Part shown: positions 4,235 through 60,019 of the stretch, piece after piece
Layout: every line of letters begins with the position of its first letter
Numbering within the stretch: position 1 is the first letter of the stretch
Notes under the pieces: generated by a model
Seen by the model: only the letters and a program-made list of their open reading frames with translations
Databases searched by the model: none
What the model was told of the DNA's origin: nothing
Position numbers and translations under genes: made by a program
From: Rhina ancylostomus
Lineage: Eukaryota
Length of the DNA: 61,791 nt
Direction: 5' to 3'
NCBI GenBank assembly: GCA_030265395.1
Contig: JARFYF010000022.1
Span: 21,725,442-21,787,232 of the forward strand

Positions 4235-6314
4235 ATGAGTGTAAGGGCACTTTATCTGAATGCCCGTAGTATTCAAAACAAGGTCAGTGAACTTGTGGCA
4301 TAAATCAGTACAAAGGGGCATGGTTTAGTGGCCATTACAGAAACATGGTTGCAGGGTGGAGACAAGTGGGAATTAAATATACAAGAGTATCAGGTAATAC
4401 TGAAGGATAGGCAGGAAGGTAAGGGGGATGGGGTAGCGATCTTAATTAAGGATGAGATCAGGGCAATGGTGAAAGATGATATAAGATCTAGGGAGCAGAA
4501 TGTTGAATCCATCTGAGTAGAGATTAGGAACAGTAAAGGGAAGAAATCACTAGTGGGAGTAGTCTATAGGCCACCATATAATAGTATTACAGTGGTGCAT
4601 GCAATAAACCAAGAAATATTTGATGCGTGTACGAATGGAACGGCAGTTGTCATGGGGGACTTTAACTTGCATATCGATTGGGTGAATCAAGTTGGTCAAG
4701 GCAGCCTTGAGGAAGACTTCATAGAATGTATCCATGATAGCTTTCTTGAACAGCATGTTAGTGAACCTACAAGGGAAAATGGTATCTTAGATCTGGTCCT
4801 GTGCAATGAGACAGGTAAAATTAATGATCTTCTAGTCAGGGATCATCTTGGAAAGAGTGATCATATTATGATTTAATTTCCTCATAGAAATGGCGGGTGT
4901 AATAGTTTGATCTAAAACCAGTATATTATGCCTAAACAAGGGAGACTACAATGGGATGAGGGAGAGTTGGCTAGCGTAGATTGGAACCACAGACTACAAG
5001 CTGGGACACTTAAGGAACAGTAGAAGACTTTCAAAGAGATTTTTCACAGTACTTAACAAAAGTATATTCCAGTTAAAAGCAAGGTCAGTGAGGGTGGGGA
5101 GAGCCAACCTTGGATAACTAGGGAAATAAAAGAAAGCATCAAGCTAAAAGCTCATGCATACAAAGTTGCCAAGAGTAGTGCAAAACTGGAAGATTGGGAA
5201 AACTTTAAAAAAACAATAAAGAAACACAAAGCAAGTAATAAGGGAAGCTAGATTAAGGAAGTAAATTAGCACAAAATATAAAAACAGATGGTAAAAGTTT
5301 TTATAATTATATGAAGTGGAAAAGGGTGGCTAGTGAACATTGGTCCCTTGGAAGATTAGAAGGGGGAGCTAATATTGGGTAATGTGGAAATGGCTGAGGC
5401 CTTGAATGACTGTCAGTCTTCACGGTGCAGAACACATCTAATATGCCAAAAAGAGACGTTATGGATGCGATGGGAGATGAGGACCTCGATACAGTTGCTG
5501 TCACTAAAGAGGTAGTGATGAGCAAACTAGTAGGAAGTAAACAAGTCTCCTCATTATGATGGGATGCATCCCAGGGTACTGAAAGAAATGGCAAAAGTTA
5601 CAGTAGAGGCACTTGTGATAATTTACCAAAATTCTCTGGACAGGTCCTGGTGGATTGGAAGACAGAGAATGTCACGCAACTGTTTAAAAAAGAATGTAGG
5701 CAGAAGACTGGTAACTAGAGGCCAGTTAGCTTAATGTCTGTAGTCGGGAAAGTGCTTGAAGCTATTATTAAGGAAGAAATAGCGAGACATCTGGATAGAA
5801 GTGGTTCCTTCAGGTAGATGCAGCATGGATTCAGGAAGGGAAGGACTTGTTTGACAAACTTATTGGAGTTCTTTGAGGATATCATGAGCACAGTGGATAG
5901 AGGTGAACAGGTGGATATTGTAGGCTTGGATTTCCAGAAGGCGTTTGATAAGGTGCCATATAAAAGAATTATCCATAAGGATGCATGGAGTTGGGGGTGA
6001 TGTATTAGCATAAATAGAGGAATGGTTAACCAATAGAAGGCAGAGAGTTGGGATACATGGGTGTTTCTCTGGTTGGAAATCAGTGGTGAGTGGGGTGCCA
6101 CAGGGGTCAGTGCTGGGCTCACAGCTGTTCACGATATATATTAACGATTTGGAAGAGGCGATCGAGTGTGGCATATCTAAGTTTGCTGATGACACCAAAT
6201 TGAGTGAAAAAGCAAATTGTACAGAGGATGCAGAGAAATATAGATAGGTTAAGTGAGTGGGCAAGGGTCTGGCAGATGGAGTACAATGTTGGTAAATGTG
6301 AGGTCATCCACTTT
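4235..6314 (+). pseudogene. CR1 ORF2 (APE endonuclease + reverse transcriptase), disrupted
   Basis: ORF pieces 4328-4516, 4553-4876, 5818-6000 and 6204 onward carry APE and RT motifs (FADD at ~6182-6193); multiple stops and frameshifts. Confidence 0.92.
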
Positions 6315-6540: not shown

Positions 6541-6632
6541 CCCTCCATGGTTGCTGCCTGACCTGCTGAGTTCCTCCAGCACTTTTTGTGTATTGCTCCA
6601 GATTCCAGCATCTGCAGTATTTCCTGTGTCTC
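6541..6632. mobile_element. Penelope-derived palindromic element, right arm (remainder in gap)
   Basis: gctgcctgacctgctgagttcctccagcac...agattccagcatctgcagtatttcctgtgtctc; near-identical to 44960-45040. Confidence 0.75.
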
Positions 6633-7335
6633 AATTTATTATACAGTGCATTGAGGTAATACAACATAAAACAGATTGCAGAGTAAGTGGTTCAGTTACA
6701 GAGAAAGTGCAGTGCAGGTGAACAAACAAGGTGCATGGCCATAACTAGGTAGATTGTGAGGACAAGAGTCCATCTTATCCTACTAGGGAACCATTCAATA
6801 GTCTTATAACAGTGGGATAGAAACTGTCCTTGAGCCTGGTAGTATGTGTGTTCAGGCTTTTGTATCTTCTGCTTGATGGGATGAGGGAGAAGAGAGAATG
6901 TCTAGGGTGGGTGGGGTCATTGATTATGTTGGCTGCTTTATTGCAGTAGCGAGAAATATGAGTTTCCATGATGTGCTAAGCTGTGTCCACAACTCTCTGC
7001 AGTTTGTCGCAGTCACAGGCAGAGCAGTTGCTATACCAAGTCGTGATGCATCTGGATAGGATATTTTCAGTGGTGCATCGATTAAAAATTGGTGAGGATC
7101 AAAGGGGACAGGCCATATTTCTTTAGCCTCCTGAGGAAGTAGCGGTGCTGGTGATCTTTCTTGGTAATGGTTTCTATGTGGTTGGACCAGGGCAGGCTAT
7201 TGGTGATGTTCATTCCTCTCACCTTCAGCACTGTTGATAGCAGCATGTATATCACCCCACTTCCTGAAGTCAATGACCAACTCTTTTTTTGTTTTGCTAT
7301 CATTGAGGAAAATGTTGTTGTCATGAGACATAATG
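6633..7335 (-). mobile_element. Rex1/Babar-type LINE 3' fragment
   Basis: Minus ORFs HDNNIFLNDSKTKKELVIDFRK, YFLRRLKKYGLSPLILTNF and AANIINDPTHPRHSLF...RRYKSL..TTRLKDSFYP. Confidence 0.85.
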
Positions 7336-12697: not shown

Positions 12698-12886
12698 AGT
12701 CCGCGCCGCCCATTTTAAACCCCAAATTAACCTACCCGTACGTCTTTAGATTGTGGGAGGAAACCAGAGCACCCGGAGGAAACCCACGCAGACATGGGAG
12801 AACATACATACTTACAGTGACGGGAATCGAACCCTGATCGCTGGCGCTGTAATAGTTGTGCTAACTGCTACGCTACCGTGCCGCCC
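12698..12886 (-). mobile_element. V-SINE (tRNA head, CR1-tail subfamily), young
   Basis: Reverse of gggcggcacggtagcgtagc...gggttcgattccc...ttctcccatgtctgcgtgggtttcctccgggtgctctggtttcctcccaca; same family as 59015-59262. Confidence 0.9.
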
Positions 12887-13145: not shown

Positions 13146-14190
13146 AAATCAATAAATTGGTTTACTATTGTCACATGTACCGAGATGCTGTGAACAACTT
13201 TGTTTTGCATGTTATCCACACAGACCATTTCATCACATCAGTATATAGAGGTAGTTCAAGGGAATAGCAATAATAGAATGTAGAATAAAGTGATACAGCT
13301 ACAGATAAAGTGCAGAGTAGGCAGACAATGAGGTGCAAGGCCAAGACAAGCTAGATTGTGAGGTTAAGATCTTATCATACAAGGCAACCGTTCATTAGTC
13401 TTATAACAGCAGAATAGAAGTTGTCCTGAGCCTGGTGTTATATGCTTTCAGGCTTTTGTATCTTTTTCCCAGTGGGAGGGGGAAAAAGGGACAATGTCCA
13501 GGGTGGGTGGGATCTTTAATTATATTGGCTGCTTTACTGAGGCAGGGAGAAGTGTAGACAGAGTTCATGGAGGGAAGCCTAGTTTTGATGTGCTGAGCTG
13601 TGTCCACAACTCCCTGCAGTTTCTTATGGTCTTGAGCAGAGCTGTTGCCATACCAAGCCATAATGCCTCTGGATAGGACACTTTCTGTGGTGCATCTATA
13701 AAAATTGAGAGTCTATGGGGTTATGCTGAATTTCTTTAGCCTTCTGAGGGAGTAAGAGCGTTGGTGAGCTTTCTCGGCCGTTGGACTAGGACAGGCAATT
13801 GGTGATGTTCACTCCTATGAACTTGAAGCTCTCAACCCTCTCAACCTCAGCACCATTGATGTAAACTGGAGTGTGTGCACTGCCCCTTTTCCTGACGTCA
13901 ATGACGAGTTCATTTGTTTTGCTAACATTGAGGGAAAGGTTATTGTCATGACATCGTGTCACTAGGCTCTCTATCTGCTTCCTGTACTCCAACTCATTGT
14001 TATTTGAAATTCGGCTGCAGATGAAGTTAGAGCAGAATCTGGCCACTCAGTCATGAGTGTATAGGGAGTAAGTAGGGGGTCTGAGGATATAACCATGTGG
14101 GGCACCAGTGTTGTGATTGTGCTGGAGTTGTTTTCTATCCTTGTTGTTGTCCATCCTTGTTGACTGTGGTTTGTTGGTCAGGATGCCGAT
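13146..14190 (-). mobile_element. Rex1/Babar-type LINE, 5'-truncated (RT C-terminus + 3' UTR)
   Basis: NTGAPHGYIL..YSLYTHD; CHDNNLSLNVSKTNELVID; WYGNSSAQDHKKLQ; tail ggtacatgtgacaatagtaaacc on the minus strand. Confidence 0.9.
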
Positions 14191-19232: not shown

Positions 19233-19445
19233 AGATATCTTTATTAGTCATGTGTACATAGAAACACACAGTGGAATGCATCTTTTAGCGTAGAGTGTTC
19301 TGGGGGCAGCCCGCAAGTGTTGCCACGCTTCCGGCGCCAACATAGCATTCCCACAACTTCCTAACCCGTACGTCTTTGGAATGTGGAAGGAAACCAGAGC
19401 ACCCGGAGGAAACCCACACAGACACGGGGAGAACATACAAACTCC
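19233..19445 (-). mobile_element. V-SINE (Rex1/Babar-tail subfamily), head in N gap
   Basis: V-domain ggaaaccagagcacccggaggaaacccac...ggggagaacatacaaactcc plus distinct tail tttattagtcatgtgtacatagaaacacacagtggaatgc. Confidence 0.88.
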
Positions 19446-24361: not shown

Positions 24362-24482
24362 ATCTGCAAACACGAGAAATCTGAGATAAAGACAGAAAAT
24401 GCTGGAAATACTCAGCAGGTCCAACAGTATATGTGGAGAGAGAAACAAACTTAACATTGCAGGCTGAGATCTTTCACAAGGC
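24362..24482. mobile_element. Penelope-derived palindromic element, left arm (old)
   Basis: acagaaaatgctggaaatactcagcaggtccaacagtatatgtggagagagaaacaaacttaacattgcaggctgagatctttcac. Confidence 0.7.
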
Positions 24483-29577: not shown

Positions 29578-29680
29578 TTGGATGCTGAAAATCTGAATTT
29601 AAAATAGAAAATGCTGGCAGGGTAGGCACCATCTGTGGAGAAAAACACAGTTAACATTTCAGGTTGGTGACATTTCTCCA
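29578..29680. mobile_element. Penelope-derived palindromic element, left arm (old)
   Basis: gatgctgaaaatctgaatttaaaatagaaaatgctggcagggtaggcaccatctgtggagaaaaacacagttaacatttcaggttggtgac. Confidence 0.65.
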
Positions 29681-41579: not shown

Positions 41580-44120
41580 GGATGACCAGAAGGGGTATTT
41601 TAGATTCTATTCATTCAATCAAATCATGGAATTAATGTTTTGAAAGAATGGAAAAATGTTTCTCTGCTAATGAAATGCAGAAAGGAAGAAGTCCATTTTG
41701 ATTGTGGCTTTGGGTTTTAAGACCTACACAGGCTGATTTTAAAAACCTGCTGGTTCCAGCCAGGTGAGGAGAAAAGATACCTGAAGAGTTGGTTAAATTA
41801 TTTGAATGGTATAACTGCCCCACCCCATTTCCATGGTACAAAGGTGGACACATCAACTGGGATCAAAATCCTGATAAAACTGTTGTAGATTTCATTGGCA
41901 GATTTGAGATAGTTTGCTGAATACATTGTGTTTGGTAAAAGGTTGGAGGTGATGTTGTGGGATTTTATAGTTCATGGAATTAATGATTGCTTCCTCAAAG
42001 GAGGCTTCTCAGTGAGAAGGAACGGAATGTCAAGCAGGTGCTTGAGATTGCCCAGGTAGTGGGGACTGTGATCAAACAAGCATAGGATTTTTAACAGCAT
42101 CAAGTGATGGCTCAGAGCATTAACACGTTAGGGTCTGACTCTTTGGCATCTTCTGGAAGAGTGAGGAACTATCTAAGGAGGAAATGTTATTGTTACAGTA
42201 GCATGTGATCTGGAGCGAATTGACTGAGGTGGACAGAGTCTGTTTGCAAATTTGTAATATCAAGGGACGTTTATCAATAGTTTGTTTGAAAGCAAAGCAA
42301 GACCATGGGAAGCTCAGGAAAAGGAGCAGTGTGAAACCCATTGAGAAGGGCATCAGATACTCACTGAAAAATGTGGTGAGCTGCATGGATCGTATAGATT
42401 GCCCATGTTATGTCAGAATTAGACTGAGCCTTCCTTAAGTCTCTGGAGATCATCTTGAAGGAAAGAGAGGCTGATGATGGAACTGGACACTGCTGCTGCA
42501 GTACTGGTAGTGTACCATCAGGAATTTAAGCCTGAAGATGAAGCTTGTGGAATCATTTACCTTTCTTTGTATCTACATTAGGGAAAGAATCAAAGTGATA
42601 GGAACATGTGAAACTAGTGAGAGCTTGTGGAAGTGAATCATGTCTTCATCTTCTGATTGTTCCAGGTCAAGGACCAAATTTGACGATCCAGAAACAGCTA
42701 TCAAGGGTAAAAATAAAAAAAATAGAAAATGTTGGTTATACTCAGCTTGTGAGGGAAGCATCTGTGGAGAGCAAAAAAAAATTAATGTTTTGGGTCAATT
42801 CCCTTTGGGGGGGAAACGTTAGAAATGAAATAATTTGAAAGTTTATTTGCAAATTTAAAGTCATTTGATTTCTAACTTTTCTCAGTCCAAATGAAGGGTC
42901 ATCAATCTATGATGTTAACTTTATTCCTCTGTGCCCATAGATGTTGCTTGACCTGCTGAGCATTTCCAGCATTTTCTGTTTTAATTTCAGATTTCCACAT
43001 CTGCATATTTTGCTTTTGGAAAGATAGAGTGATCAAGAGCATGAAGAAACTGTCTACTTCAAATATGTTCAGAGGAGATTTCTAAGTATTCAAGGCATGA
43101 AAGTCAACATTCACCTGAAGGAGACTGCTGCAACTCAGTTATTTAAAGCACTTTAAGTTTGAGGAAAAGACTGGGAAAATCTGAAGAGTCTCCAGGAAGC
43201 AGGTATCATTAAACTGGCTCAGGTTTCTGATTGGGCTGCAGTAGTTGTTCCTGTAGTGAAGACAGATGGCACCATTAGGATCTGTGGAGATTACAAGATA
43301 ACAATCAATAGGGTGCAAAGGTAGGAAGATATCCCTTAGTTCTGATTGATGATTTGTCTGCTTAGATAGGAGGACAGATCACCACAACCCTTGATATGTT
43401 GCATGCTCACCAGCAAGATTCAATGGAGTACTCAATAATAAATGCTCATTGTGAATTGTTCTAATATAATAGACTTCCATTTGGGAATAATATCAGCTCC
43501 AGGCATTTTTCAGAGAACAAAGTACAGTTTTGCTTTATATGCCAGTTGTTCTGGTTTCCTAGTTGATATATGGGTGCCTACAAGAACAGAGCAGGAACAC
43601 AAGGAAAACCTGGAATGAGTACTTAGATTCTGAGAAGCAGAAGATGGTTGAAGGAAGGCAAGTGTGCTTTTGCTGCTTCAGAACCTAGCCGTCTTGCTAT
43701 CAGAGATACTGAAGGACTTGACACAATTGAGGACAATGTGAACACAGTATTGGATATACTTACTCTGACCAACATGACAGAACTGAAGGTGTGCTTTAGA
43801 CTTCTGGTATCATTAGCATCATGTTAGGACCTCTTAGAGTTAGTGAATCACAAAACAAGTGGGAATTGGACAAAAATACAGGGAACTGCATTCTGAGAGT
43901 CGTAGCAGTTGTTGAGTTTACAAGCTGTTGCTTATTATGATCCAGTGAAGCTGTTGTTGCTGTTCTGGGTTATATTGCTTTACAACATTGCTATTTTTCC
44001 ATCACACCATCTAGAGAATGGAGATGAGAAGCAGATTAACTTTGCCACAAAGTCCACTTACAGAGGAGAGCAACAGTGCACCTAAACAAAAAAATTAGCT
44101 ATCATCTACTGACTGAAATT
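41580..44120 (+). mobile_element. Ty3/Gypsy LTR retrotransposon internal region (gag-PR-RT-RH), heavily decayed
   Basis: gag ERMEKCFSANE, LEVMLWDFIVHGIND..RRLLSE, knuckle-like ICNIKGRLSIVC; protease MELDTAAAVLV (42477); RT GIIKLAQVSDWAAVVVPVVKTDGTIRICGDYKITINR (43202-43312), YNRLPFG; RNase H YYDPVKLLLL...ENGDEKQINFA. Confidence 0.85.
42705..43020. mobile_element. Penelope-derived palindromic element, both arms, inserted in Gypsy pol
   Basis: Left agaaaatgttggttatactcagc...agcatctgtgg...gttagaaat is inverted against right atttctaac...atagatgttgcttgacctgctgagcatttccagcattttctg. Confidence 0.75.
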
Positions 44121-44880: not shown

Positions 44881-45040
44881 AAACAGAGCAAAAATCAAAC
44901 AGCTGGAGGAACTCAGCAGCATTGCATGACCTGAACTGTTGACATCCCTTTGTCTCCACAGATGCAGCTTGACTCACTGAGTTCCTCCAGCTGTTTGTTT
45001 TGTGCTTCAGATTCCAGCATCTGCAGTATCCTGTGTCTCC
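44881..45040. mobile_element. Penelope-derived palindromic element, short
   Basis: Perfect 21-bp inverted repeat caaacagctggaggaactcag (44896-44916) / ctgagttcctccagctgtttg (44977-44997). Confidence 0.8.
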
Positions 45041-52305: not shown

Positions 52306-52583
52306 AGATATGTATTTACTAGTCATGTACACAGTGAAATGGGTCTTTTTGCATTGCTGAGAATGTGCTGGGGGCAGCCTGCAAGTGTCGCCACTCTTCT
52401 GGCACCGGCGTAGCATGCCCACAGCTCCTAACCTGTATGTCTTTGGAATGTGGGAGGAAACTCGAGCACCCAGAGGAAACCTACACAGACGTGGAAAGAA
52501 CGTACAAACTCCTTACAGTGGCAGAATTGAACCCAGGTTGCTGGAGTATAATAGCATTACGCTAACCACTACACCACTGTGCC
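52306..52583 (-). mobile_element. V-SINE (Rex1/Babar-tail subfamily), full length
   Basis: Reverse head ggcacagtggtgtagtggttagcg...gggttcaattc, V-domain, and the same tail as 19233-19330. Confidence 0.88.
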
Positions 52584-54840: not shown

Positions 54841-56640
54841 TATGTACTCCCATTAAGTCAATAATCAGTGCGTTTAACACTGCCTGGATGCTAAAACCCT
54901 GATGACGAGATGGCAGCATGAATTTTGTGTGTGGCCTATGGCAGGTTAAATGGGCAACGGTTAATAATGCATTTTGATCCCTGCATCTTCAATAACATTC
55001 AGTTTAGACCCCATTATCTCTTTATAGCAATCTGTAAAAAATGATTCAGGGTTGTTCAAATGTCACGTATGTAATAAATTTCATTTCAATTCATTATGCC
55101 AGTCAGGAGGTTACTGTTAGAAATGCATTTTCTGTACTTATTGATGGCACCTGGGTTTACCACTGAAGCATTTTTCTGAATAATATAAATAGAATTATGT
55201 CATCTTGGGAATGTCACCTAACGACAAGTTCTGATAACCTCAAAAAAACCTCAGTTGTTGTAAGGTCAACACAAGAACCCAGACATGAAGAGAACATTAT
55301 ATTCTTTCCCGACTGTGTATTGTTTTTAAACATTATTAAAATGAAATGATACTTATAATACTTGGGAACAGGGCCAGAACGTGACAGGTGAAATACAGAG
55401 AAACTGTAGTGAGATCCTTGCCACAAGGTATCCTTGTAATGTGAATCATGTTGTCCTTTCAGTAGTTGAGCTCAAAAGGGAGCTGCCTCAAACTTGATCT
55501 GTTGCTGCTGGTATTTATTTTTATTGCACTGTTAATCCAGAACTCCATGCTAGCAATTACATGCTTCTAGATCTTTTTTGCTGCATATGAAACTGATGAC
55601 TGTCTAACCTCCATAATGTGCTTTTTTAAAGTGTTCTATAAAATAAAAACCTGGAAAGCACTGTATTCCAGTTCATCCAGTTCAGTAATTTAGACCAAAG
55701 ACATCTTCACCATTGTATTTACCAAAAGCAAAGAAACTCAAACTTAATTTACAATGCATATTGTACAAGTTGATATGCCTCTTTTTAATAAACATACCTT
55801 TGTTTCAGTATATAGTCAAGATTGTTTGTACAACTTGAACATTTATCATTTGTTGCTTTATAACCTACTATTTTAAAGAATTTAATTTTTGCAGAGTATC
55901 TGGCCTAAGAATTCTTTTGTGAAATGTAGTGATCATTGAGTACAAGGCAAAGGAATGAATCACCTGGCTGCATCTGAGCATGGAAGTCAAATATTATGTA
56001 GCGCACATTTGGAATGCCACTTGAGCAAACAACATTTGTATATTCAAGGCCCATGAACAACATTGACCACTGGAAAGGTGAGACCTAATTTGCCATAAGT
56101 TAATGGGGACCTGCCTTACCTAACTCATTGCTATTAATTCTGCAAAATAGATCTATTCAAATGCATCCCTTCATCCCATCCACTGCCACTGTCATTTGGT
56201 GGTTTGACCACTGACACTACCCTACTCCTCCTTGTTCCCTGGATCCTGGCCCAATCATGTGTCTGCCCTAATGTGAATCCCAAGCACCAGTCTGTGTGTT
56301 AGACCTCCAATGCTGTTCTTCCAATATTGCCCTGCAAATTATTCTTTGTCAAGTGCTTATCTAGATTCCTTTTGAAAGCTCTGACTTATTCTGTTACCAT
56401 CATCCTTAAAGAGAGAACCTTTTCAATCTCATAACCATTTCCTGTGCAAATATTTTTTCCTTTCACTTCCTTGAGTTTTGTTTCAAAACTTTTTAAATGT
56501 GTGGATCCATCTGCTAATGACAAGAGCTTCTTTCTGATTACCCAATCCAAGCCACTCATGATCTTGTGCACTTCCATCAAATCCCCTCTCAGACATTTTT
56601 GTTATTCCAGGGAAAACAACCCCAACTTCTTCAGTCCAAT

Positions 56641-56790
56641 GAAGACATAAGTGACTGCAGATGCTGGACACTAGGGCAAAAAAATAAGATGCTGGAGGAA
56701 CACAGTGGGTCAGAAAGCATCTGCAGAGGAAAATAGACAGTCAACATTTCAGGTTGAGACCCTTCATCTAGATTTTTTCACTTTCTTTCT
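56641..56790. mobile_element. Penelope-derived element arm with hammerhead relic
   Basis: gactgcagatgctgg...gatgctggaggaacacag...agcatctgcagagg...cagtcaacatttcaggttgagacccttcatc. Confidence 0.8.
56738..56774 (-). ncRNA. Degenerate minimal type I hammerhead ribozyme motif
   Basis: Minus: aatc-TAGATGA-agggtctcaacct-GAAA-tg-tt-gactg; GAAA intact, CUGANGA box mutated. Confidence 0.5.
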
Positions 56791-58857
56791 CCAGTCTAAA
56801 CCTGTAGCAGAAATCCCTTAGCCTTAGAAGCATTCTAGTAAATCTTGCCTACACCCACATTAGGACCTTCACTTCCTTCCTAATTAAGTGATCAGATTGG
56901 ATGCCAACTATTATTTGTATTGTAACCAATATTTTATACAGACTTAGTGTAATTTTCCTGCTTTTGTCCTCTGCACTTCTATTAATGAATTCCAGAAACC
57001 ATATGGTTTCCAACACTCCCTTAGCAACTCTACCAAAAAAAATTATTTAATTAGAGTAACATGTAGGCACTTACTAGTGCTGACCATAAAGTCACAAATT
57101 CAGATTGCTTTAGCTCTCTCTGAAGCTTTGTTTGTGAGTACATTATATTAATCCCAGGCCAGTGGCTTCTGTGTGATACATTCCATCTCAGAAAAGTGGT
57201 TAAGAGTACTCTCTTTTCATTTTGTGTCTTTTGTAGGCCAGTTCAGAAACACCAGTGCTTCCCTGCTGAAAGCAAACATATAACAGATTCACCATGGAAA
57301 TGTGTCCCTTACTTAATACATGAAAATTATCTGCACCTCAGGTTCTGAGAACTGAATAGAAAATATCCCCATGTTGCATTGCCCTACTCAACTCAGCTAG
57401 TAGGAGTAAGACACAATGGATTAATTTCTTTCCCGTGGCCCGATCTCCTATTGCGGTCACTGTGTTGTTGTGTGGCACTCTGTTTAGCTGCCTAGTTCAG
57501 AATTGCTAGATTACTGTCCTGTCACTGAATACCTCAGTACTGCAAGGATTTAGAATATCAATAAAAGATAATTAGAGTGCAGAGAAAAGCTGCAGTCTGG
57601 GAATTAATTAACACCATTAACAATCAGACTCATAAGAAACACACAAAGAGTGAACCTTTTGTTTATCGTGCTCTCTGATAATCTTCGACAATATTTTTCA
57701 CAGCATACAGAAAGTGACAAGAAAGATTGCTTAAACATTTCAAAAAAACCTGCAAATTAAGAAAAGCATTTGAGCAAGGCTCAAGCATCAATGTTCTTCA
57801 ACTAATTATCTAACATAAAAAGAGAAACTTCCCCTCTTTCTTCCTCGGCCCCTCCGTAGAATTTTCTGGGTCTTTGCTAATGTACAATAGGCCATATGTT
57901 TGCCATGACCAGACTTCATGCCTTGACTGGTTTTTTTAACTCTGTGCAGATAGGCTCATTGCTCGATCCCACCTCAGTCAAGTTTCAGTTCTTTTGACTT
58001 CAGCTGATCAAATACCTGTTTAGCAGCCACTTCCAATAGTCAATTCCCTGGAATTTCTCAGTGTTCCCATGAAATGTCACATATATACAACTGCATACAC
58101 ATGCACACCTAACAATCACTCCTGTTCTCCATCTGATCCTCACCAACAGAGATTTCCTCATCTCCAAGATGTTGCAGCTCCTGGTGACCTTCCAAGTCAC
58201 TGTCCCCTGTTCTTTAGTACTTCCTAACTATAAGGCTCTAACACTGTGCTTGGATTTGTTTTTTAGCATTACCAAAATTAAATCTCCCAAAAATTCCACT
58301 TCTGATTTCTGTTCTCCATGCTGGCTGATGACTTCATTGCCTTTCAGTCCTTTATTTTTTAGTTCCATTTTATCTCCTCTAATTGTGCATTGTAGCTGAT
58401 CCCTCTTATGACTCTATATTGTCCTTGACCCATTGTAACATCAATAGGAAACCCCATCTGTTCTGGCTTTCTCTGCCCCTGCCCACTGCCCTGGTGTTCA
58501 CACCATGGCCCACGCCCTATTCTGGGCACTTGATATCCTCTTGGTCATGACTTATTTTTCAGACAAAAAGAGATTCTTTATCACTTTGTCACAGAAATTC
58601 CTGGCTGGTTTCCTCCAGTTGAGTACCTCAATATTATATTGCCTGGTCTCTGATATGGTTTATTTGTTGAAGGCTTTAAACAGCAAAAACTGCAATTTCA
58701 GTAAAAGAATATGTGGATGAGGCACGTAGACTGTAGGAAAACAATGAGTTGTGGGAGAAAAAGAAAGATTGATAAACAAGGAATATTACCCAACAGATGA
58801 AAAACACGGTGATGCTGGAGGAACTCAGGCCAGGCAGCATCCTTGGAGAAAAACAGG

Positions 58858-58895
58858 CAGTTAATATTTTGGGTCAGGACCCTTCTTCAGGACTG
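58858..58895 (-). ncRNA. Degenerate minimal type I hammerhead ribozyme motif
   Basis: Minus: cagtc-CTGAAGA-a-gggtcctgaccc-AAAA-ta-tt-aactg; CUGANGA and stem II intact, GAAA changed to AAAA. Confidence 0.6.
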
Positions 58896-59014
58896 AAGAT
58901 AGGAAAAGGGGAAGCCCAAGAAATAGGAGGGGAAAAGCAGAGCAGTGATAGGTGGACAAAAGAGTGGAGGCGGGGTGGTCACAGGGTGGTGATAGGTTGC
59001 TGCAGGTAAGAGAT

Positions 59015-59262
59015 GGGGCGGCACGGTAGCGTAGCGGTCAGCATGACACTATTACAGCTCCAGCGATTGAGGTTCGAATCCCATCGCCGTCTGTAAGGAG
59101 TTTGTATGTTCTCCCATGTCTACGTGGGTTTCCTCTGGGTGCTCCGGTTTCTTCCCACATTCCAAAGACGTACAGGTAGGTTAACATGGGTTTAAAATGT
59201 GCGGTGCAGACTCTTTGGACCAGAAGGTCCTGTTACCATGCTGTAAATAAATAAATACATTT
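59015..59262 (+). mobile_element. V-SINE (tRNA head, CR1-tail subfamily), full length
   Basis: A box TAGCGTAGCGG 59027-59037, B box GGTTCGAATCC 59071-59081, V-domain, CR1-like tail ttggaccagaaggtcctgttaccatgctg(taaa)3; possible TSD agat. Confidence 0.92.
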
Positions 59263-60019
59263 AGATAGTGATAGGCAGGTGTGGGGGAGGAGGGGAGAGC
59301 AGATCCACCCAGGATGGGTCAAAGGTAAGGAGAAAGGGTAAAAAAAAAGGCTCAGAAAGGGAAGAAACATGGTGGTGGGGTTGGGGTTGGAGGGTGGTTC
59401 TCTGAGATATTACCCAACGGCCTTGGAGAACATAGGAAGAAAAGTTGGAGGTGAAAGCAGTATAACAGAAACAGATGTGCTGGTATGGAAAGGAAGAACT
59501 GCAATTTAGCAAAGAAGCAAAGAGCTTTTGGGAAAAGATACCTTTTGCATTTAATATGTCATAACCATTATGGAATTTGAATGTTGTTATCAGAAATGCA
59601 ATGATTTTAACATATCTGTATGCTAGAGTAACTCTTGGTAGTTAATTTTTAAATTGTGTTTCACTATTAACTATTTGCAATGTGTTAAAAGTGTTGAGGT
59701 TGNNNNNNNNNNNNNNNNNNNNNNNNNNNNNNNNNNNNNNNNNNNNNNNNNNNNNNNNNNNNNNNNNNNNNNNNNNNNNNNNNNNNNNNNNNNNNNNNNN
59801 NNTAAAAGTGTTGAGGTTGTAATTTTTTGTTAATGATAGGGCAAGCAGAAATCACATCCCAAACATCTGCCTTCTGAGGTGGATATAAAAGACCGGATGC
59901 ACAATTTGAATGCATGTAAGGTGGTTCCCCGGGGTTCTAATCAATTTTTACCTCTCAGCCAACATGATTAGCATCTAACTAAATTGTATCTTTTCTTCTT
60001 TGCTGTTTAGGAGTTTTCT

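Follow-up and report, generated by a model that had tools for sequence, protein, structure and literature searches.

A decayed minimal hammerhead motif in the end repeat of a truncated Penelope-like element, likely of Neptune type, in Rhina ancylostomus

The element and other repeats at the locus

The stretch of DNA analysed here, referred to as the window, comprises 61,791 nucleotides of Rhina ancylostomus contig JARFYF010000022.1 (assembly GCA_030265395.1, positions 21,725,442 to 21,787,232 of the forward strand). At 58795..59406, on the minus strand, lies a 5'-truncated copy of a Penelope-like element (PLE). It consists of about 360 bases of 3' UTR/pLTR, contains no coding sequence and is split by a later insert. 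The copy matches loci L017 and L143 at 89-90% over 59014-58795, and matches of 79-91% cover parts of 59379-59263. An identical 12-bp word, read as the target-site duplication, borders the element at its 3' end (58783..58794) and at its 5' end (59407..59418); an equally long shared word arose in 2 of 2000 random draws. The window element does not carry the optional tail of about 30 nt; in public contigs, the tail shows up at 58795 as a loose end. No match to reverse transcriptase (RT) or endonuclease (EN) coding sequence was found anywhere in the window.

The interrupting sequence, at 59015..59262 on the plus strand, is a SINE-like repeat with an A-rich end and a 4-bp duplication. Its later arrival is indicated by relatives of the element that are uninterrupted at this point and by other copies of the repeat in the window, and public contigs from four of four runs contain joints skipping 59010-59263. 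Kin of this repeat, presumably a V-SINE/HE1, are seen near 12698-12886, 19292-19445 and 52360-52512.

A profile of natural copies detects 8 remnants of the element's end sequence in the window; the reversed window gives no match. One of them, at 56640..56772 on the minus strand, belongs to an older subfamily, designated C below; it carries T3 and A4 at 56770-56769, retains G12, shows U11.1 and U15.2 from CpG decay, and its homology ends at the 5' edge of the core. Older remnants are located at 44926..44992 (plus strand, profile E 5e-10), as a member of an inverted pair (44887-45006), at 29616..29677 (minus strand, E 4e-7) and at 24395..24482 (minus strand, E 3e-5). Two more, also older, stand head to head at 42727..42805 (minus) and 42879..42975 (plus), together spanning 42727..42975 and recognised with the same profile, while at 6543..6592 (plus strand, E 6e-9) only the part downstream of the core is left.

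The fold-back pair at 44887-45006 also matches Rfam mir-1756 (E 0.00025, 39.6 bits, far under the gathering score of 100), which is probably a hairpin artefact. Long inverted arms at 74-391 and 5016-5332, 85-89% complementary and about 4.6 kb apart, are probably two opposite copies of another repeat. Collinear copies of a repeat that we take to be LINE-like, 74-83% alike and about 6.6 kb apart, occupy 6831-7225 and 13281-13824. No tRNA genes were found in the window.

The hammerhead motif

Positions 58858..58895 of the element, read on the minus strand, form a decayed minimal type I hammerhead motif of subfamily A, as judged from its letters, hammerhead numbering, family comparison and folding. 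An earlier note on this DNA had described these letters (58895-58858) accurately, including the CUGANGA box, that is, C3-A9, which is undamaged at 58890-58884. The box is followed by an extra A at 58883. Helix II, at 58882-58871, had been called a perfect stem; a paired helix is indeed present, and folding favours four base pairs with a 4-nt loop, as a fifth pair would leave a loop of 2 nt. Both the G10.1-C11.1 pair that closes helix II and the extra nucleotide after A9 are found in the window copy and in its subfamily. A15.1, U16.1 and H17 are present together with a palindromic 15.2-16.2: the family reads ACGU and then U, and the window copy AUAU and then U, with U and A at 15.2 and 16.2 (58866 and 58865) and self-complementarity retained. 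U17 is located at 58863 and position 1.1 is an A at 58862; the putative cut site would lie between 58863 and 58862.

Two features of the window copy depart from a working hammerhead. An A is found at 58870 where G12 is expected, and helix I, proposed previously as the stem cagtc/aactg, forms four of its five pairs, with C2.1 facing A1.1, so that the pair adjacent to the cut site is broken. G12 is the general base of the hammerhead according to the consulted part of PMC6155905, and either change, G12>A or G1.1>A, fails the hammerhead acceptance rules as excerpted from PMC3088659. To judge from the letters, the window copy is likely unable to self-cleave.

Relative to its own subfamily, the copy shows five changes in the 3' half, four of which are at CpG (58870, 58866, 58865 and 58859). 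The earlier claim that every difference falls on a CpG is contradicted by the fifth, G1.1>A at 58862, since the slot 17-1.1 reads TG in 97 and CG in none of the 100 matches listed (27 of 28 by script). Nor does the GUC triplet assigned to this copy apply: the predicted cleavage triplet of subfamily A is GUU, with U17 in 86 of 92 rows, and C17 is a feature of its sister subfamilies. At 15.2-16.2, the double change preserves the palindrome, and 20 of the 22 target pairs of the dimer are still predicted to form. Helix I of the subfamily A parent contains an A-C mismatch at a CpG, and CpG decay there restores a Watson-Crick pair, as at 58859 in the window copy.

A relaxed hammerhead descriptor gives one match in the window, and a strict one, which requires GAAA and a 4-bp stem, gives none across the window. 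An Rfam scan of the window, and of four loci whose cores are otherwise intact, matched no hammerhead family; being silent on such cores as well, Rfam is uninformative for minimal motifs and neither supports nor refutes the assignment. The missing Rfam match, together with the failure of the window copy under the strict core definition in the available text of PMC3088659, could be taken to mean that the resemblance to a hammerhead is due to chance. This is practically negligible as an explanation, because only 1 of 300 dinucleotide shuffles gave a match to the relaxed descriptor, a wider descriptor finds 2,836 intact cores in the genome against 24 in the control, and the location in a PLE end repeat is the one published.

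Folding of six copies placed the catalytic dimer above the predicted energy minimum of the dimer in every case (for example, -19.7 against -31.5 kcal/mol). This agrees with the sections available of PMC4209133, in which such minimal motifs are reported to have low activity. On inspection of the subfamilies, the helices show one-sided changes and no compensatory double change.

At the 5' edge of the core, a pyrimidine tract ending in YAG (58893-58915, minus strand) overlaps the 5' strand of stem I and abuts the core. Reading this tract as an initiator relies on the consensus that we assume such elements to have. The interval from the GTAA at the ORF stop to the YAG, about 270 nt (about 390-410 in the C type), is a possible candidate intron, the initiator being the other possible reading of the YAG. 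A parallel for an intron acceptor is given by Drosophila virilis Penelope in the portion of PMC4209133 consulted. No intron-less genomic junction was found among 32 readable copies.

CpG decay across the family

The exact intact-core pattern of subfamily A has 816 matches genome-wide and none in the control; position 17 among the 100 matches listed is U in 96, C in 3 and A in 1. When four dinucleotide slots of the pattern are left free, 2,938 matches are obtained, again with none in the control. Among 100 of these listed, slot 11.1-12 reads CG in 39, TG in 36, CA in 21 and other in 4; slot 15.2-16.2 reads CG in 42, TG in 22, CA in 28 and other in 8; the stem I slot reads CG in 38, TG in 24, CA in 26 and other in 12; and slot 17-1.1 reads TG in 97, TA in 2 and GG in 1. 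A script count on 28 rows agrees with these tallies. Consequently, three slots show decay of the CpG type, and the fourth, 17-1.1, held no CpG in the subfamily parent. In public run X11, the family letter makes up 98% of depth at 58862 but 51-72% where the four CpG changes lie. Across subfamily A rows, where divergence outside CpG is 5.3%, G12 is kept in 65 of 88, U4 in 74 of 78 and G1.1 in 86 of 92, and most copies have the helix I mismatch A-C at 2.4/1.4 (C1.4 in 69 of 93).

The earlier note had concluded that the catalytic core was killed by CpG decay. For the window copy this is correct as regards G12, which was lost at a CpG, but the family retains hundreds of exact intact cores. A stronger version of the same idea would hold that the ribozyme in particular is disarmed through methylation-driven mutation, which put an end to the activity of the family. 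Two CpGs do overlap essential positions (C11.1-G12 and C15.2-G16.2), G12 has become A in about 21 of the 100 matches listed, and both CpGs are kept in only 18 of them. However, CG is retained at 60 of 177 core slots and in 34 of 95 cases at a flanking CpG downstream of the motif (p 0.79; 99 rows not chosen on the core, some of which may represent the same place twice), and the two core CpGs decay independently (p 0.54). Equal loss inside and outside the ribozyme indicates that the decay is general and neutral rather than aimed at it, which refutes the idea in its strong form, and CpG decay targeted on the ribozyme is rejected on these two counts. The persistence of intact cores and the second lesion of the window copy, which is outside CpG, point the same way. 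For the anole element, moreover, the consulted part of PMC11167929 reports that in vitro insertion was not reduced by mutating the ribozyme and that protein was required for cleavage; by analogy, this would fit a dispensable cut. Specific disarming is thus highly improbable, and neutral decay is the reading adopted below.

Coding relatives and the class of the element

A first look at the 2.2-Gb genome yields 1,685 candidates for the motif-bearing repeat, the best being 90-93% alike, and the longer relatives run upstream into a GIY-YIG-like frame. Among 30 loci chosen by the endonuclease protein alone, the motif is found on the same strand in 16, and of the 14 remaining loci many are gapped or consist of short contigs. 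The distance was measured at 12 loci; at 10 of these the motif is 270-335 bases downstream of the endonuclease. Among 30 loci chosen by RT, the motif occurs downstream on the same strand in only 5 within the stretch examined. RT, EN, UTR and motif are collinear and free of gaps in loci L163 and L179/L184.

The protein matches are modest. Locus L162 matches Pfam RVT_1 with E 2e-6 and 28.1 bits, against a curated cut-off of 29.6, and its first hits in the Atlas score 0.96-0.97 to RVT_1/HTH_animal clusters, in which these domains are found in 12-74% of the members. The GIY-YIG match to Pfam is weak, with E 0.045-0.071 in two of three EN pieces, below the curated cut-offs. A CX4CxxC linker can be read by eye ahead of the endonuclease in L129, L132 and L180, and a linker of the CX2-5CxxC type is also present in L025. 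Such a linker marks Neptune and Nematis in the sections available of Craig et al. 2021 (PMC8557442). The element likely belongs to the Neptune type, the choice between Neptune and Nematis being a tentative one based on the linker. The extra tail of about 30 nt is found in 25 of 50 readable copies and an inverted upstream partner in 9 of 32, after 20 of 52 copies adjoining N had been dropped from the partner survey; both are hallmarks of PLEs. No intact full-length ORF was found among the loci retrieved: the two candidates, with 1,150-aa "open frames", were interrupted by N, and the frames proved to be N runs. Nor did this gapped assembly yield a partial tandem with a pLTR upstream.

It had also been proposed that the repeat forms a non-autonomous family. 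On such a view, a separate retrozyme or SINE-like unit, short and with defined limits, would carry the ribozyme and depend on mobilisation in trans. Most copies are in fact short, the 5' ends of 10 of 32 readable copies (loci L061-L120) cluster within 0-6 bases upstream of C3, resembling a discrete unit, and tandem retrozymes are reported in one chondrichthyan in the accessible part of bioRxiv 10.64898/2026.07.22.740005. However, 5' ends are also distributed continuously to -688 and into the endonuclease frame, RT, EN and motif are collinear, the window contains no head-to-tail array of the element, and the same-strand copies in cluster L106 are spaced by unrelated sequence, save for one duplication by an assembly gap. 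A separate unit is quite improbable. Relatives with RT, a Neptune-type linker and GIY-YIG upstream imply that the motif copies are broken, 5'-truncated 3' ends of a protein-coding element and not a retrozyme.

Cluster L106 itself (G000:C1:9614526-9617560) contains four same-strand and further inverted element ends in 3 kb, with a 354-bp duplication beside an assembly gap. No tandem hammerhead units were found in the window or in four loci examined. A retrozyme at the window locus was considered and rejected, the locus being a lone insertion with target duplication and no array.

Subfamilies and the A4 core

Sorted by their downstream letters, the cores found with the wider descriptor fall into subfamilies A (A7 and U17, including the window copy), B (U7 and C17) and C. 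This sorting leaves 108 of 377 rows unclassified and a loose boundary between B and C, and B has only 6 unbiased rows, with A4 in four of the five readable. A4 is found in 25 of 34 subfamily C rows and in none of 78 subfamily A rows, which indicates that it was inherited from a parent element and does not represent scattered mutation. Cores with a letter other than U at position 4 number 934 against 72 in the control (among the 100 matches listed, A 69, C 26 and G 5). With position 4 left free, the C-type pattern has 3,169 matches and none in the control (A 72, U 22, C 4 and G 2 among 100 listed). With its A4 majority, subfamily C departs from the C3-A9 box; it is more diverged than A (8.6%), and several of its copies have endonuclease sequence upstream. 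Taken at face value, these counts describe an A4 lineage that is amplified with a non-canonical core.

The second motif copy, at 56738-56774, should be seen in this light. It is homologous to the window motif (73% over 81 columns) and had been described as keeping GAAA and having lost CUG. G12-A15.1 is indeed kept, but the loss is not simple decay: A4 is shared with most of its subfamily, and T3 and the missing 5' strand of stem I are private. Its closest kin, which were chosen on downstream sequence only and are 81-87% alike, have A4 in 16 of 21 readable cases. The consensus previously reconstructed from the two window copies consequently mixes two subfamilies with different letters at positions 4, 7 and 17: A supplies its 5' half, and its C17 comes from B/C.

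The U4C change yields a weak but viable variant that is functional in vivo in a viroid, according to the consulted text of PMC3088659. No U4A hammerhead variant was found in the literature searched; one may be recorded in Lunse et al. 2017 (PLE hammerhead variants, via PMC6765202) or in the supplementary material of PMC4209133. The sequences are about evenly compatible, for and against, with the proposal that a PLE lineage spread to thousands of copies from an A4 parent that kept the remaining core. Such a lineage would be either an undescribed working variant or one that spread without efficient self-cleavage in an animal. The role of the PLE hammerhead is still described as open in the portions available of PMC8557442 and PMC11167929. 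If the proposal is true, matched sister lineages with U4 and A4 make the purpose of the PLE ribozyme directly testable. Both lineages have been widely amplified despite having different letters at a conserved core position, and they offer a simple natural comparison.

The same observations bear on the possibility that the motif hardly ever acted as a ribozyme in these lineages and was kept in the parent elements for a task other than cutting, for instance as a start site, a splice acceptor, a site of protein binding or part of a reading frame. Judging by the two free-slot patterns, amplification of the A4 subfamily has been about as extensive as that of the canonical one (3,169 and 2,938 matches). 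Most subfamily A copies carry the helix I mismatch, in A and C alike the core is preceded by a pyrimidine tract that ends in YAG, and the ORF stop lies within GTAA in 44 of 62 copies. Against this, every other core letter is the majority letter in A and C, as are the extra A, G10.1-C11.1 and the palindrome of stem III, two hypermutable CpGs included, and the viroid U4C variant still functions in vivo. The subfamilies are close kin, so the shared core letters may reflect inheritance alone. A non-cutting role is rather doubtful but carries appreciable weight.

Proposed history of the window copy

The feature at 58858..58895 is very probably a minimal hammerhead that has decayed within the 3' end repeat of a Penelope-like copy, truncated at its 5' end, likely of Neptune type and likely unable to cut. 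The family belongs to the minimal hammerheads of Penelope-like end repeats; decay has cost the window copy two of their defining features, namely G12 and pairing between 1.1 and 2.1. In the history proposed here, the starting point is represented by longer relatives, which encode RT, a CX4CxxC linker and GIY-YIG, with the motif about 270-335 bases later. In an active parent, the motif would cut slowly after U17, either as a dimer through the palindromic 4-nt stem III or with the element protein, as suggested by the available parts of PMC4209133 and PMC11167929. Insertion with a 12-bp target duplication delivered only the last 360 or so bases, which were later split by the SINE-like repeat. During subsequent neutral drift, presumably driven by methylation, CpG turned into TG or CA in about two thirds of the copies, inside and outside the ribozyme, as the tallies reflect. 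Finally, G12>A and the broken 1.1-2.1 pair would each impair or abolish cleavage at this locus. The motif itself is ordinary, that is, a known motif in a known class of element undergoing neutral decay, and the A4 subfamily is the useful residue of the analysis.

Comparison with known systems

Minimal hammerheads in the pLTRs of metazoan PLEs, including Xena, Poseidon and Neptune of fish, are described in the consulted sections of Cervera and de la Pena 2014 (PMC4209133), and their arrangement is matched here. Shared features include type I topology, the lack of a separate helix III, the palindromic 15.2-16.2, the extra nucleotide between 9 and 10.1, G10.1-C11.1, a short helix I, and thousands of single dispersed motifs derived from truncated elements. 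In contrast to the Schistosoma motifs in that source, with a helix II of 7-8 bp, helix II has 4 bp here. The window copy also differs from the PLE motifs described there in lacking G12 and the 1.1-2.1 pair, and a sister subfamily differs in having A4.

As in EN+ PLEs of the Neptune or Nematis type, so far as presented in the accessible part of PMC8557442, RT is followed by a C-terminal GIY-YIG with a CX2-5CxxC linker, 5' truncation is strong, and an inverted 5' partner and an optional tail of 30-40 bp occur. Unlike those elements, the family has yielded neither an intact ORF nor a partial tandem with an upstream pLTR from this gapped assembly.

The Poseidon element PAc of Anolis carolinensis (Frangieh et al. 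2024, PMC11167929, available portion) is similar in that its hammerhead, which has stems I and II, directly precedes two alternative 3' ends, corresponding to the tail. However, PAc belongs to a different clade and its ORF starts at stem II. Because subfamily A has A7, it contains no AUG at positions 6-8; subfamilies B and C have one. Non-LTR retrozymes, as described in the part consulted of Li, Clavereau and Pollet (bioRxiv 10.64898/2026.07.22.740005), share the type I hammerhead, the PLE origin and the occurrence in a chondrichthyan. They are tandem repeats with the motif in consecutive units, whereas the window locus is a lone insertion with target duplication.
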